A DNA stretch of 43,022 bases from an uncultured Candidatus Poseidoniales archaeon. GTDB lineage: Archaea; Thermoplasmatota; Poseidoniia; Poseidoniales; Thalassarchaeaceae. The notes beneath the pieces are model-generated. The model did no database searches and was not told the DNA's origin. It was given only the letters and a program-made list of their open reading frames with translations. Positions 5,481-43,022 of the stretch are shown here, piece by piece (the first letter of the stretch is position 1; each line of letters begins with the position of its first letter). Both the position numbers and the translations under genes were made by a program. The stretch covers positions 1-43,022 of the forward strand of contig CAZXZO010000017.1 in assembly GCA_964645485.1 (NCBI GenBank), read 5' to 3'.

Positions 5481-5628
5481 AAATCAGATTTCATAGCCGA
5501 GTTTGCTTTGCTTCGCTACTTACTCTTAAACTAGCCAGAGGTCAATAAAATCGGATTTTATAATCGAATCTGCTTCGCTTTGCGACTTCTCATTAAACAT
5601 ACCAGAGATTCATAAAATTTGATTTCAT
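5481..5628. repeat. Degenerate 67-bp intergenic tandem repeat (~2.2 units)
   Basis: Units start at 5481 (aaatcagatttcata), 5548 (aaatcggattttata) and 5615 (aaatttgatttcatt). The first two share gctt(t/c)gctt, ttaaac and ccagag at equivalent offsets. Confidence 0.8.
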
Positions 5629-5845
5629 TCTGCGAGTTTCCTATCCTATGCTCAGTCCAACTAGCAGGTCTTTGTGCGAAGCGAATTTTACCTCGATTTC
5701 AATTGCTTCGCACCGACTAGAAAATTTCCTTCACTTTGTTCAGTCCAATTTTCTAGCCCAGCGACAATCATTGATTCTTAAACGAATCATTGATTTTCGC
5801 GGGCTTTTTAATTTCATATAATTAATTAATATTGAAATTAAAAAG
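5629..5845. repeat. Array of five inverted-repeat (hairpin-forming) units downstream of tRNA-Thr
   Basis: Stems: ctgcgagtt/aactagcag (5630-5667), gtgcgaagc/gcttcgcac (5674-5713), ctagaaaatt/aattttctag (5717-5756), a 17-bp stem with 2 mismatches (5761-5800), and ctttttaatttca/tgaaattaaaaag (5804-5845). Confidence 0.9.
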
Positions 5846-5918
5846 AGCCAACGGAGAGATTTGAACTCCCGACCACCTGATTACAAATCAGGAGCACTAC
5901 CAGCTATGCAACGTTGGC
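5846..5918 (-). tRNA. tRNA-Thr(UGU), intronless, CCA not encoded
   Basis: Reverse complement GCCAACGTTGCATAGCTGGTAGTGCTCCTGATTTGTAATCAGGTGGTCGGGAGTTCAAATCTCTCCGTTGGCT folds as a cloverleaf. Anticodon stem CCTGA/TCAGG with TGT, T-loop TTCAAAT, followed by a T-run. Confidence 0.97.
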
Positions 5919-40391: not shown

Positions 40392-41155
40392 GTAGGTCGA
40401 GAATAGTTTGGTATGGTGGGGCAAAAAAACTCCCCAAAAGTGAACTAATGCTTCACGCTGTTCCCGGTGTTGGAAATGTGGGTAAATTAGTGACGGACAG
40501 TCTCGTAAATACCCATGATAGCACTTTAGTCGCACGAATACTCCACCCTGACCTACCACCTCACGCAACTCTAAGTGAGAACGGAATTTTGACTCCACCT
40601 TCTCTTGAAATCCACTCTGTGAGTTTGCCAAGTGGAAGCAATATCATGACACTTTCAAGTAATTTTCAGCCTTTGACTCCGGCTGGTCAGTATGAAGTCG
40701 CTTCTTCATTTCTAGAATGCTGCAAGGATGCAAAAATCGGCCGTGTGTTGATTTTAGCAGGACTTTCGGCCGAGCCAGGCGATGAATCAGTTCATGTTGT
40801 ATGTGCGAGTGAAGATGATGTTAAAGAAATCACAGATATTGGTGTTGAAGTTTCCAAAGAGCATCCCGCTGCCGGAATTATTGGGATGACCGGGATGGTT
40901 TCATCTTTAGCACCCACGTTCGATCAGGCTTCAGCATGTGTAATCGCTGAAACGGTCGGCACCAGTGCTGATTCTGTAGCGGCCGACCGGATGGTCAATT
41001 TTCTCAAGGATTCATTCAAATTAGACCTTGGTCTTGAACTCAATAACACAAAAGAAACTGCTGAAAAGTTGAAGGCATTTTTTGACCTTGATGAAATCGC
41101 AGAAATGCCACTTGACTTTGATGTTGCAGAACAAGATGCAGGATTTTACGCCTGA
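40388..41155 (+). CDS. PAC2-family proteasome assembly chaperone
   Basis: AVPGVGNVGKLV, QPLTPAGQY, GIIGMTG; canonical position after nop10. Confidence 0.88.
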   Translation: MSRSRIVWYGGAKKLPKSELMLHAVPGVGNVGKLVTDSLVNTHDSTLVARILHPDLPPHATLSENGILTPPSLEIHSVSLPSGSNIMTLSSNFQPLTPAGQYEVASSFLECCKDAKIGRVLILAGLSAEPGDESVHVVCASEDDVKEITDIGVEVSKEHPAAGIIGMTGMVSSLAPTFDQASACVIAETVGTSADSVAADRMVNFLKDSFKLDLGLELNNTKETAEKLKAFFDLDEIAEMPLDFDVAEQDAGFYA

Positions 41156-41197
41156 CTTTGGTTCGTTTGGCATCTTTATTGTGCGACAAATGTGTAG

Positions 41198-41398
41198 TTA
41201 GCCACCTGATGAGACTATTACAAGTTCAAGGGAAACATCGCTGTTGAGTTGGCTATCATGTGGTACAATAATACCGTCATGTACTGCTAACACGGTACTT
41301 GGATGAATGTCCAGTTTGACTAGCAATTCTCGAATTCTGATGCCTTCATCACACTCAACCGAATGTGTCTTGTCATCATGAGTTAGGGATACGTGCAT
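41198..41398 (-). CDS. ThiS/MoaD/SAMP-like ubiquitin-fold protein
   Basis: 67 aa ending in VIVSSGG; IRELLVKLDIHPSTVLAVHDG. ATG 41398 follows GAGGA (track start 41434). Confidence 0.88.
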   Translation of the reverse strand: MHVSLTHDDKTHSVECDEGIRIRELLVKLDIHPSTVLAVHDGIIVPHDSQLNSDVSLELVIVSSGG

Positions 41399-41441
41399 AA
41401 TCCTCGGAAGTGATTGCCCATTTTGATTGTTCACATCTGGT

Positions 41442-41461
41442 AATAATAATTAATTATTATT
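41442..41461. repeat. Perfect 20-bp AT-only palindrome
   Basis: aataataatt|aattattatt. Confidence 0.9.
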
Positions 41462-41546
41462 TGACAAACCCTCTAACAAACGGGGTTTCGCTACCCATGG
41501 TGAATTTTTGTAGAACCTATCGTTTAATAGAGCCGGGTATTTCAGA

Positions 41547-42563
41547 ATGAATATGTCAGACAATCTCATCTGCTTAACATGTGGAAATAATCTTGTGGTA
41601 GATGAATTATTTGATGTCTATTCGTCAATCTGTTTTTCCTGCGGGGATGTGGGGAAATTCACTAAGACAAGAAGAATTACTTCTTCAGCAACTAGCATCG
41701 TTCTTGAGGCTTTGAAGGATGGGCTCAAACCCAACCCAAGAGCCGCTAGCCACAAAGTGTACCGGCACAAACTAGCGGATGAAAAGAAGATTGCGAAAGC
41801 CTTCCGTAGTACATTTCGTACTTTGATAAATCACAAGGATGGAATGAGAGATTGGGCTCCCCCAAAAGTTATGAGAACTCAAGAGCAATTTCTTGATGGT
41901 ACAAGAAAAGAATATAATATGCCCAAAAGGATGACAAAAACACAGATTGAAGGGGATTCTATAGGTGAATTGTATGAACATTATTTTTGCCATCTTGTTG
42001 CAGATCATCCACGGATGACGAGTCTAAATATGGAACAGAGAGTATATCTTGCGAATGGTGAAATGTTGCTGAGAGGTAAACCAGATTTTGCTTATCTATA
42101 CCAAGGAAAGGATGAGACAATGACTATTCCGGTGGAGTTGAAAACGGTAAAAGAAGATGTATTTGACCATGGAAAGTTGAGAGATGATACTCTAAAACAA
42201 GTTTCGAGATATGCTTATCTTGGCCAAAAAATTGGGTGGTCAAATCGACCAATTTGCGCGTTAATATTGGTCGCAAGAGATAGTGGCCGTTGTACAACGA
42301 TGATAATTGATGACAGATATTATTCAGAAAAGGACCATAAAAACAAATTAATTGAAAAAATTGGAGTTCTTGATGCAAGATTAAAGAATCATGATTCTGG
42401 TAAAGTGCCTCTTGCTAGAGCTTGGAATCTGCTTTCAGAAAAAGAGGATTTTGAGTCATTAGATGAAGGTGATGGCCTCTTAAGCATTGATAAATGGGTC
42501 ATCAATGCAGTGCAAGCAAGAATTGATAGAGTGAATAAACGTACAAAAAAAGTTGATTCATAA
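41547..42563 (+). CDS. PD-(D/E)xK nuclease of RecB/Cas4-like type with an N-terminal Zn ribbon
   Basis: CLTC...CFSC; IGELYEHYF, LRGKPDF, PVELKT, QVSRYA (QxxxY). AT-rich, K/R-rich. Confidence 0.8.
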   Translation: MNMSDNLICLTCGNNLVVDELFDVYSSICFSCGDVGKFTKTRRITSSATSIVLEALKDGLKPNPRAASHKVYRHKLADEKKIAKAFRSTFRTLINHKDGMRDWAPPKVMRTQEQFLDGTRKEYNMPKRMTKTQIEGDSIGELYEHYFCHLVADHPRMTSLNMEQRVYLANGEMLLRGKPDFAYLYQGKDETMTIPVELKTVKEDVFDHGKLRDDTLKQVSRYAYLGQKIGWSNRPICALILVARDSGRCTTMIIDDRYYSEKDHKNKLIEKIGVLDARLKNHDSGKVPLARAWNLLSEKEDFESLDEGDGLLSIDKWVINAVQARIDRVNKRTKKVDS

Positions 42564-42566
42564 AGA

Positions 42567-42957
42567 TGTCAAGCTATTGTGAAGGACAGAGAGATAGAAT
42601 ATTTTTGATTCTAAAAATTCCTTCACCATGATCAGTCCAATTCTACAACTATACGAGTTTTCAGTTGAAACTTTAATTTTGGAAAACTCGCGTGGTTCAA
42701 TTCTCTTTCCATTATATTGAAAATGCTGGGAAAGCCGAGAGGGAGATTTGCTCAGTGTCAGAATGGTGGAATTGTTGAGTTATGTCCAGTTCTGACTTGT
42801 TGCAAACTCCCCTCGCTTCGCTCAGTCCAGTTTGCAACCATCGCGTGTGCGGCCGAATTGTTGAGAATTGTACAGCACACGCTTGGTTCAAACTCCCTTC
42901 GGCACCTTCTTTGCAGTCATGTGCTATGAGCGAAGGCGCCGAGAGGGAGATTTGAAC
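42567..42957. repeat. Tandemly duplicated ~190-200-bp structured module downstream of tRNA-Ser, each copy ending in the tRNA 3' end
   Basis: Matching landmarks: tgtca 42567/42756, TCAGTCC ending 42638/42828, ggttcaa 42694/42885, gccgagagggagatttg 42734/42938. Confidence 0.85.
42734..42750 (-). repeat. Exact 17-bp direct-repeat copy of the tRNA-Ser 3' end (att-like)
   Basis: gccgagagggagatttg is identical to 42938-42954. Confidence 0.95.
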
Positions 42958-43019
42958 TCCCGCGTCACGAGGACAGTGGATTTCGAATCCACCGCGATAC
43001 CGGGCTATGCGATCTCGGC
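42937..43019 (-). tRNA. tRNA-Ser(CGA), long variable arm, CCA not encoded
   Basis: Reverse complement GCCGAGATCGCATAGCCCGGTATCGCGGTGGATTCGAAATCCACTGTCCTCGTGACGCGGGAGTTCAAATCTCCCTCTCGGCG. Anticodon stem GTGGA/TCCAC with CGA; G discriminator. Confidence 0.97.
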
Positions 43020-43022
43020 TGT

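Follow-up and report, generated by a model that had tools for sequence, protein, structure and literature searches.

Behind the tyrT–tyrV genes of Escherichia coli lie 178-bp repeat units (rtT/RttR, tpr), each of which contains the last 17–19 nucleotides of the tRNA; an RNA, RtT, is made from the tyrT trailer, and the tyrT repeats are assumed to be a local duplication without mobility and, to our knowledge, have not been described as inserted into the gene. Among systems that move by recombination, integrases prefer the T-loop sublocation in tRNA genes, and the attC sites of integrons are folded single-strand recombination sites. The elements of tRNA-targeting tyrosine integrases leave gene-less remnants (CIMEs), which are stacked by accretion (PMC5704250), and REPINs are doublets of REP sequences that are mobilized by RAYT/Y1 transposases (PMC2817692).

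A first-pass annotation of the locus described here had likened the repeats behind a tRNA-Ser gene to those of E. coli tyrT. The likeness is sound in that both loci have tandem trailer units, each with a tRNA 3′ end, but it does not extend to an inverted copy of that end, which is absent in E. coli (in the tyrV trailer the tRNA 3′ end recurs at +159, +337 and +515, each time in direct orientation), or to the distribution of the repeats, which in E. coli are found at a single locus. The window analysed here is a complete 43,022-bp contig (C17) from an 82%-complete, 1.94-Mb MAG, labelled G000, of an archaeon placed by synteny in Marine Group II (Poseidoniales, Thalassarchaeaceae-type), and the genomes with which it was compared are MAGs or species representatives. 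Marine Group II is among the most abundant archaeal groups of the ocean.

The module stack behind tRNA-Ser(CGA)

The 17-mer GCCGAGAGGGAGATTTG is the complement of the T-stem and acceptor 3′ strand of tRNA-Ser(CGA), and we found it, as annotated, in two exact copies 204 bp apart, of which one (42938–42954) is the 3′ end of the gene and the other (42734–42750) is its duplicate. These were the only occurrences in the whole window, even at three mismatches, and two matches were obtained in none of 100 shuffles. The degenerate tandem repeat of approximately 200 bp that had been proposed was also recovered, with unit 42751–42957 aligning to 42547–42750 at 122 identities over 173 aligned positions (70%) and with an alignment score of 51, against 5.6 ± 3.3 for shuffles (maximum 22; z 13.9). 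All of the hairpins annotated earlier were present, their positions shifted by at most one base, and the shared loop string GAATTGTTGAG was located at 42769 and at 42855 (previously given as 42854). Assembly artefact, which the annotation had named as a finding that would overturn it, is contradicted by the 30% divergence between the units, because copies that are only 70% identical are too divergent to be an assembler duplication. The contig stops 3 nt past the 5′ end of the tRNA gene and was joined to a second contig, C37, on the basis of a 55-nt overlap (window 42968–43022 = C37:1–55), which leaves the repeats unaffected; C37 holds the tRNA promoter and the OB-fold gene. The break within the tRNA gene is probably an ordinary k-mer break, because this tRNA is 100% identical in several congeners.

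Read along the tRNA strand, each unit (hereafter module) has five parts, beginning with a spacer and continuing with the inverted tRNA 3′ end, two or three hairpins, the hairpin H1 and finally a direct copy of the 3′ end. The features of the locus, with the evidence for each in brackets, are as follows.

42935–43019, minus: tRNA-Ser(CGA), the host gene (ARAGORN; Rfam RF00005, 48.5 bits)
42907–42934, minus: spacer 1, the trailer on the element side of the functional 3′ end, with CCA not encoded (sequence)
42885–42906, minus: inverted copy 1, comprising T-loop, T-stem and acceptor 3′ strand (sequence; predicted closing stem of the module fold)
42843–42882, minus: hairpin H2, with 8-bp arms at 42843–42850 and 42875–42882 (inverted repeat, fold)
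42799–42838, minus: hairpin H1, with 10-bp arms at 42799–42808 and 42829–42838 (stem covaries between genomes)
42808–42830, minus: H1 apex motif, CTGGACTGAGCGAAGCGAGGGGA on the tRNA strand (sequence)
42757–42796, minus: hairpin H3, extra in the proximal module, with arms at 42757–42763 and 42790–42796 (inverted repeat, fold)
42734–42750, minus: direct copy of the tRNA 3′ end, the exact 17-mer, at the boundary of modules 1 and 2 (exact match)
42711–42733, minus: spacer 2, in the distal module (sequence)
42694–42710, minus: inverted copy 2, degenerate (sequence, unit alignment)
42654–42690, minus: hairpin H2′ of the distal module, with arms at 42654–42662 and 42682–42690 (inverted repeat)
42617–42640, minus: decayed H1′ apex motif of the distal module, with 17 of 23 positions kept and the stem lost (unit alignment)
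42586–42603, minus: possible remnant of a third copy of the tRNA 3′ end, strongly decayed, at the outer limit of the stack (by eye, weak)
41547–42563, plus: ORF of 338 amino acids with an N-terminal CxxC...CxxC (phrog_1706, E 3.5e-4; PADLOC Cas4, E 4e-3)

The stack fills the 370-bp gap between the tRNA gene and the ORF, and the modules are protein-less, with no ORF inside them. Spacer 1 is unlike the trailers of relatives at tRNA-Ser. With two one-base bulges, inverted copy 1 is able to pair with either of two partners, the direct copy or the 3′ end of the tRNA, and in the fold predicted for the tRNA strand of the proximal module its pairing with the direct copy encloses H1, H2 and H3 (−65.2 kcal/mol, z −4.4); the fold predicted for the opposite strand is equally good (z −4.5). 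Hairpin H2 differs from module to module, H3 is a paralogue of H2 (a 47-nt repeat at 74% identity) and the arms of H2′ are identical to arms in the modules of a congener, G011. The first TTTT on the tRNA strand falls only past the direct copy. The inverted copies, the conserved H1 loop and the genome-wide family described below are additions to the earlier description of the locus.

Behind a second tRNA gene in the window, tRNA-Thr(UGU) (5845–5918, minus), stand three hairpins in succession (region 5560–5918), of which the first is AT-rich, the second H2-like and the third, at 5717–5756, of H1 type; the loop of the third is the apex variant GGACTGA-ACAAAGT-GAAGGAA, and a second motif-like stretch lies further on. 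The decayed loop of the distal Ser module resembles this tRNA-Thr(UGU) loop over 30 nt at 87%.

Modules in relatives and at other tRNA genes

The gene order eIF2alpha – PAC2 – thiS-like – tRNA-Ser – OB-fold gene is conserved across the genus. Module number at tRNA-Ser(CGA) varies among relatives, as the annotation had supposed it should: there are none in most, two here and three or four in G011, where they lie between the tRNA and the next gene, and no extra copy of the tRNA-Ser 3′ end was present within 1.5 kb in 10 of 11 relatives. Two of the G011 modules are 150-bp tandem copies that are 91% identical, with the order of parts seen in the distal module of the window, and one G011 module is present at both tRNA-Ser(CGA) and tRNA-Ser(GGA), at 92% identity, these two tRNAs having common 3′ ends. 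Relative to arrangement-matched relatives, G000 has approximately 1.5 kb of extra, lower-GC DNA between thiS and tRNA-Ser, made up of the modules and the ORF at 41547–42563. Metagenome scans with a species-specific spacer and with a motif–gap–tRNA-Ser pattern gave no match, and neither circular junctions nor polymorphism between strains was seen.

Between congeners, tRNA-Ser(CGA) and its promoter differ in orientation with respect to the two flanking genes (window 41201–43022 with C37:1–700), one orientation being found at loci L004, L006, L009, L011, L012 and L002, and the other at L003, L007, L008, L010 and in G000. In the group of L004 a degenerate, T-loop-like remnant lies beside the start of thiS, which hints at a break in the T-loop.

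The annotation had also proposed aligning relatives in search of empty sites, and five were found (in G014, G009, G013, G012 and G005), at a sister locus, tRNA-Leu(CAA). In these genomes the end of the tRNA is followed immediately by CCA and an AT-rich trailer. In G000 the same gene (contig C2, 58167–58650) has four copies of its 3′ end over approximately 480 bp; the CCA and the ancestral trailer are present only at the most distal copy, and the copy joined to the tRNA body runs into element sequence. Because the CCA and ancestral trailer stand on the distal copy alone and the relatives are empty, the modules must have entered the gene bringing replacement 3′ ends with them. Insertion inside the 3′ part of the tRNA gene, with distal displacement of the original end, is thus seen at tRNA-Leu(CAA), and is extended to tRNA-Ser by analogy and by the variation among relatives; the direct copy at 42734–42750, which has weak trailer resemblance to relatives, would on this analogy probably be the displaced older 3′ end of tRNA-Ser. 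The 3′ end now joined to the body of tRNA-Leu(CAA) is followed by CTT rather than CCA, and likewise in G011; with the loss of the encoded CCA, the tRNA is now dependent on CCA addition.

The same design recurs behind other tRNA genes, and the arms of each module copy whichever tRNA hosts it. With a strict tRNA-end probe (14 nt, at most two errors), we found within 500 nt downstream of 19 host tRNAs 22 direct and seven inverted copies of the tRNA's own 3′ end, compared with one direct and no inverted copy in mismatched controls (n = 282). Across G000, one or more additional direct copies of the 3′ end were found downstream of 10 of the 33 usable tRNA genes and upstream of none, control tests giving 2 + 2 matches in 966. 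The ten are Gln, Leu-CAA, Gly-UCC, Pro-UGG, Pro-GGG, Ser-CGA, Leu-GAG, Phe, Met and Ser-GGA, with Leu-UAA as an eleventh; the stacks after tRNA-Gln, Gly, Phe and Met (contigs C1, C3, C19 and C23) are read in part as N, and their content is legible in part. Variant apex motifs stand behind several of the G000 host tRNAs, including the tRNA-Thr(UGU) of the window, and near-exact matches to the H1 loop on other contigs of congeners were, where inspected, situated just downstream of other tRNAs and flanked by copies of the 3′ ends of those tRNAs. Of 121 family genomes sampled, 11 contain the apex motif, in a patchy distribution (the reversed control pattern gave one match), and most of the motif matches checked for tRNAs in those genomes lie 46–420 nt downstream of one.

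Modules are 140–205 bp in size and gene-less, and they occur in two layouts. Behind Ser, Leu and Asn tRNAs the CTGGAC... form of the loop is on the tRNA strand and an inverted copy lies within 7–30 nt after the tRNA, and behind Asp, Trp, Gly, His, Glu and Ala tRNAs the loop is on the other strand, approximately 66 nt away from the tRNA gene, and is contiguous at the T-loop with the direct copy; the strand of the H1 loop relative to the tRNA therefore differs between module types.

The earlier proposal that the approximately 190-bp module is itself the integrating or excising unit stands in so far as it makes the module a discrete unit of insertion, as indicated by the variation in number among congeners, the same design at other tRNAs and the empty sites at tRNA-Leu(CAA). 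The 17-bp repeat, which had been called att-like, behaves as such a junction; direct repeats of the tRNA 3′ end bound each unit. As the two copies in the window are old (70% identity), module activity may be long past.

The apex motif and candidate enzymes

The consensus of the H1 apex is GGACUGA-[mini-hairpin]-GARGGAA, 23 bases in length. The pattern YTCCYTCGCTTCGCTCAGTNCAG gave at least 120 exact matches in bacteria and archaea, where approximately one chance match was estimated; among the matches listed are Treponema and other Spirochaetia, Kuenenia and other Planctomycetota, Sporosarcina, Lysinibacillus, Planococcus, Psychrobacillus, Sphingobium, Rhizobiales, Patescibacteria, Parabacteroides, Halobacteriales and Marine Group II. 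With up to two mismatches allowed (control 0), there are 139 copies in a Kuenenia MAG, 70 in a Spirochaetia MAG and six in the closed genome of Sporosarcina thermotolerans. At the bacterial loci examined the motif does not adjoin tRNAs, so that the motif alone cannot specify tRNA targeting. Alignment of three bacterial groups placed the apex on top of unrelated foldbacks of 85–140 nt that have nothing else in common. These families measure approximately 135 nt in Treponema/Spirochaetia, 85 nt in Kuenenia/Planctomycetota and 140 nt in Bacillaceae, and their copies often stand at contig ends, the assemblies being broken there.

Over 85 distinct sequences, the five positions on each side of the apex can pair in 69–96% of cases, with bases that are lineage-specific. 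Within the apex, the middle base of the inner 7-mer GCGAAGC is variable and compensatory changes are seen (ACGAAGT, CCAAAGG, CCAACGG and ACAAAGT); the 7-mer is replaced once by a 5-bp hairpin, and the flanks GGACTGA and GARGGAA are fixed. Judged from the sequences, the H1 apex is a structure. The strand that carries CTGGACTGAGCGAAGCGAGGGAAG folds better in 85 of 100 distinct segments, by a mean of 5.1 kcal/mol (p 2e-11, the copies not all being independent), and this asymmetry points to a single-stranded form, either RNA or ssDNA. Orientation relative to flanking ORFs was 18 versus 6, in a crude count from crude gene calls, and in the closed S. thermotolerans genome the orientation of the motif showed no flip between replichores (six copies, a small sample).

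Rfam gave only the tRNA at E ≤ 1 in 41000–43022, and nothing over the motif in 17 loci at gathering score; the exact motif was absent from 2.9 million viral contigs; and the exact string was unmatched in the searchable literature, in which keyword searches gave no description. Comparison by eye of the consensus with a box C/D K-turn or K-loop, a hammerhead or twister core, SRP helix 8 and a sarcin–ricin mimic revealed a misfit in each case, and these identities were rejected. The heptamer GCGAAGC is an extraordinarily stable DNA mini-hairpin that is found at single-strand replication origins (PMC13037366), which we take as a lead only.

Our searches revealed no recombinase linked to the modules and no integrase cognate to them. 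G000 has a single tyrosine recombinase, which is most similar to archaeal XerA (203.7 bits, slightly below the cut-off of 220), and neither a serine recombinase nor a Y1 transposase was detected in this 82%-complete genome; PF01797 (Y1 transposase) was not found in G000, G011 or G006. A link to Y1 transposases was also considered through the motif-rich bacteria, in which the gene is abundant, but was rejected, there being no motif within 1.5 kb at four inspected loci and no such gene in the archaeal genomes. Clustering of the ORFs within 2.5 kb of the motif at 80 loci yielded no recurrent protein except spurious frames over the repeat itself.

The ORF at 41547–42563 was likewise rejected as a mobilizing enzyme, since its matches, to Cas4/PD-(D/E)xK, are weak and its distribution does not follow that of the modules: Pfam and NCBIfam gave no match, and the gene is present in 3 of the 121 family genomes but in none of the module carriers G011, G001 and G005.

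A classical integrase element is present in G011, on contig C35 (2732–14291), unlinked to the modules. It occupies tRNA-Ala(UGC): the gene for a 295-residue integrase adjoins attL, attR (14 nt, exact) is 10.25 kb distant, and another integrase gene (417 residues) starts right at attR, as in tandem accretion. The element has neither the inverted copy nor the apex motif, and most of its cargo ORFs have no Pfam match.

Explanations and known systems

It seems probable to us that the stack in the window consists of two copies, with a possible third remnant, of a miniature, gene-less integrative element of Marine Group II tRNA genes. Such an element would insert by site-specific recombination within the 17–25 bp held in common from the T-loop to the 3′ end, under the action of a recombinase that it does not encode and that would act in trans, candidates being a tRNA-targeting tyrosine integrase (such as that at tRNA-Ala in G011) or the host XerA. 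Pairing of the inverted copy with the tRNA end would allow a single strand to fold into a duplex copy of the target site, and the H1 apex might be the handle by which a mobilizing or maintenance factor recognizes it. Stacks would then be enlarged either by new insertions at the regenerated site or by unequal crossing-over, after which old copies would decay. Several observations weigh against this reading: no recombinase linked to the modules and no circular junction was found, G000 (82% complete) yielded only the XerA-like enzyme, the window copies are old, the H1 loop is on either strand depending on module type, the apex in bacteria stands away from tRNAs, and the classical element of G011 has neither inverted copy nor motif.

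One alternative, which we regard as unlikely, is that the modules are functional structured RNAs, either transcribed together with the tRNA precursor or cut out of it. A stem like that of a tRNA's acceptor and T arms, made by pairing of the inverted and direct copies, would then attract RNase P, RNase Z or the CCA-adding enzyme; a conserved protein would be bound at the H1 apex, and the spread among tRNAs would be secondary. The closed multi-helix junction predicted for the tRNA strand would suit such an RNA, but the opposite strand folds just as well, and in the modules of Asp, Trp, Gly, His, Glu and Ala tRNAs the better-folding strand is antisense to the tRNA. Read-through is plausible, given the position of the first TTTT past the direct copy; variation at the apex preserves structure; the strand asymmetry and the crude ORF orientation bias given above fit an RNA; and the E. 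coli tyrV trailer is annotated as a small RNA, RttR. Against this, most congeners have no module at tRNA-Ser, the copies decay (as the distal module of the window has done) and no Rfam family is matched. Moreover, the displaced original 3′ end records a DNA insertion event, whatever an RNA might do later. Neither the strand asymmetry nor the folds decide between an RNA and a DNA element; it is the two orientations of the loop, together with the dispensability of the modules among congeners, that favour the DNA reading.

It is still less likely, in our view, that the repeats are scars (CIMEs) of larger integrase elements that integrated successively into tRNA-Ser and lost their interiors, the ORF at 41547–42563 being the last of the cargo. 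Tandem accretion and decay at tRNA 3′ ends are established (PMC5704250), the extra lower-GC DNA of G000 includes this rare Cas4-like gene, and the tRNA-Ala element of G011 has its second integrase in tandem. Such scars, like a local duplication, fit the repeats themselves, but random decay would not be expected to leave the same ordered design at many tRNAs and in many genomes, and it offers no account of the inverted copies, which the genuine integrase element of G011 lacks. Nor was an att-like copy found in the window past the ORF, which is itself missing from other module-bearing genomes, and our searches found no full-length parent element for the modules.

That the repeat is an immobile local tandem duplication (by slippage or unequal exchange) or an assembly artefact is very improbable, for although the two units are neighbours with a common order of parts, the 91%-identical pair in G011 implies that local amplification does occur and the contig ends in the tRNA, the artefact is opposed by the 30% divergence and local duplication is largely refuted by the host-matched copies at unlinked tRNAs, the genome-wide count and the insertion at tRNA-Leu(CAA), and explains neither the G011 module at two loci nor the inverted copies.

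A broader proposal, which goes beyond the miniature element preferred here and which we hold to be doubtful, is that the archaeal modules and the bacterial foldbacks form one cross-domain, protein-less class defined by the apex, whose members would move as folded single strands; in archaea the inverted copy and the tRNA end would rebuild the target duplex for a host recombinase such as XerA, and the apex would bind a factor common to bacteria and archaea. If true, such a class would represent a new principle of mobility and a new universal nucleic-acid motif. Apart from that proposal, the presence of an identical 23-base apex in archaea, spirochaetes, planctomycetes, bacilli and others, at up to 139 copies in one genome, points to an unrecognized factor or constraint in both domains.

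The modules occupy about a third of the tRNA genes of G000, the 3′ ends of which they rewrite, and, if they are mobile, we know of no smaller integrative elements. They make tRNA genes hot spots of rearrangement, tRNA-Ser being flipped relative to its neighbours between sister species, and their repeats break assemblies and can mislead the annotation of tRNAs and att sites. New here are the empty sites, which prove insertion into the gene, the count of tRNAs across G000 and the cross-domain apex motif with its structure.

Among known systems, the E. coli tyrT repeats differ from the modules of the window further in having no conserved apex hairpin. The modules resemble integrase elements and CIMEs in their insertion in the 3′ part of a tRNA gene, in the element-borne end that restores the gene, in the direct repeats that bound the units and in tandem stacking. 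Unlike CIMEs, they are gene-less units of 140–205 bp with a conserved internal design, in which the target is present in inverted form and one hairpin bears the conserved apex; extra 3′-end copies stand behind about a third of the G000 tRNA genes, and no integrase cognate to the modules was found.

With MITEs and REPINs the modules have in common that they are small, gene-less, multi-copy foldbacks with a patchy distribution between genomes, and the bacterial carriers of the apex motif are REPIN-like, with 70–139 copies, GTGG-type ends and many Y1 transposase genes. The terminal inverted repeats of the archaeal modules, in contrast to those of MITEs, are not constant but are copies of the host tRNA, and what corresponds to the ‘duplication’ is 14–25 nt of that tRNA. 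The modules keep the tip and vary the stems, whereas REPINs keep the stems and leave the tip free, and, in contrast to REP/REPIN–RAYT systems, no Y1 transposase was found with them in G000, G011 or G006.

The attC sites of integrons may be compared in principle only: both would have imperfect inverted repeats with bulges, a possible duplex site formed from one strand, gene-poor tandem units and an asymmetry between strands. No integron integrase or attI was seen, and, in contrast to attC, the recombining sequence proposed for the modules is the tRNA end itself.
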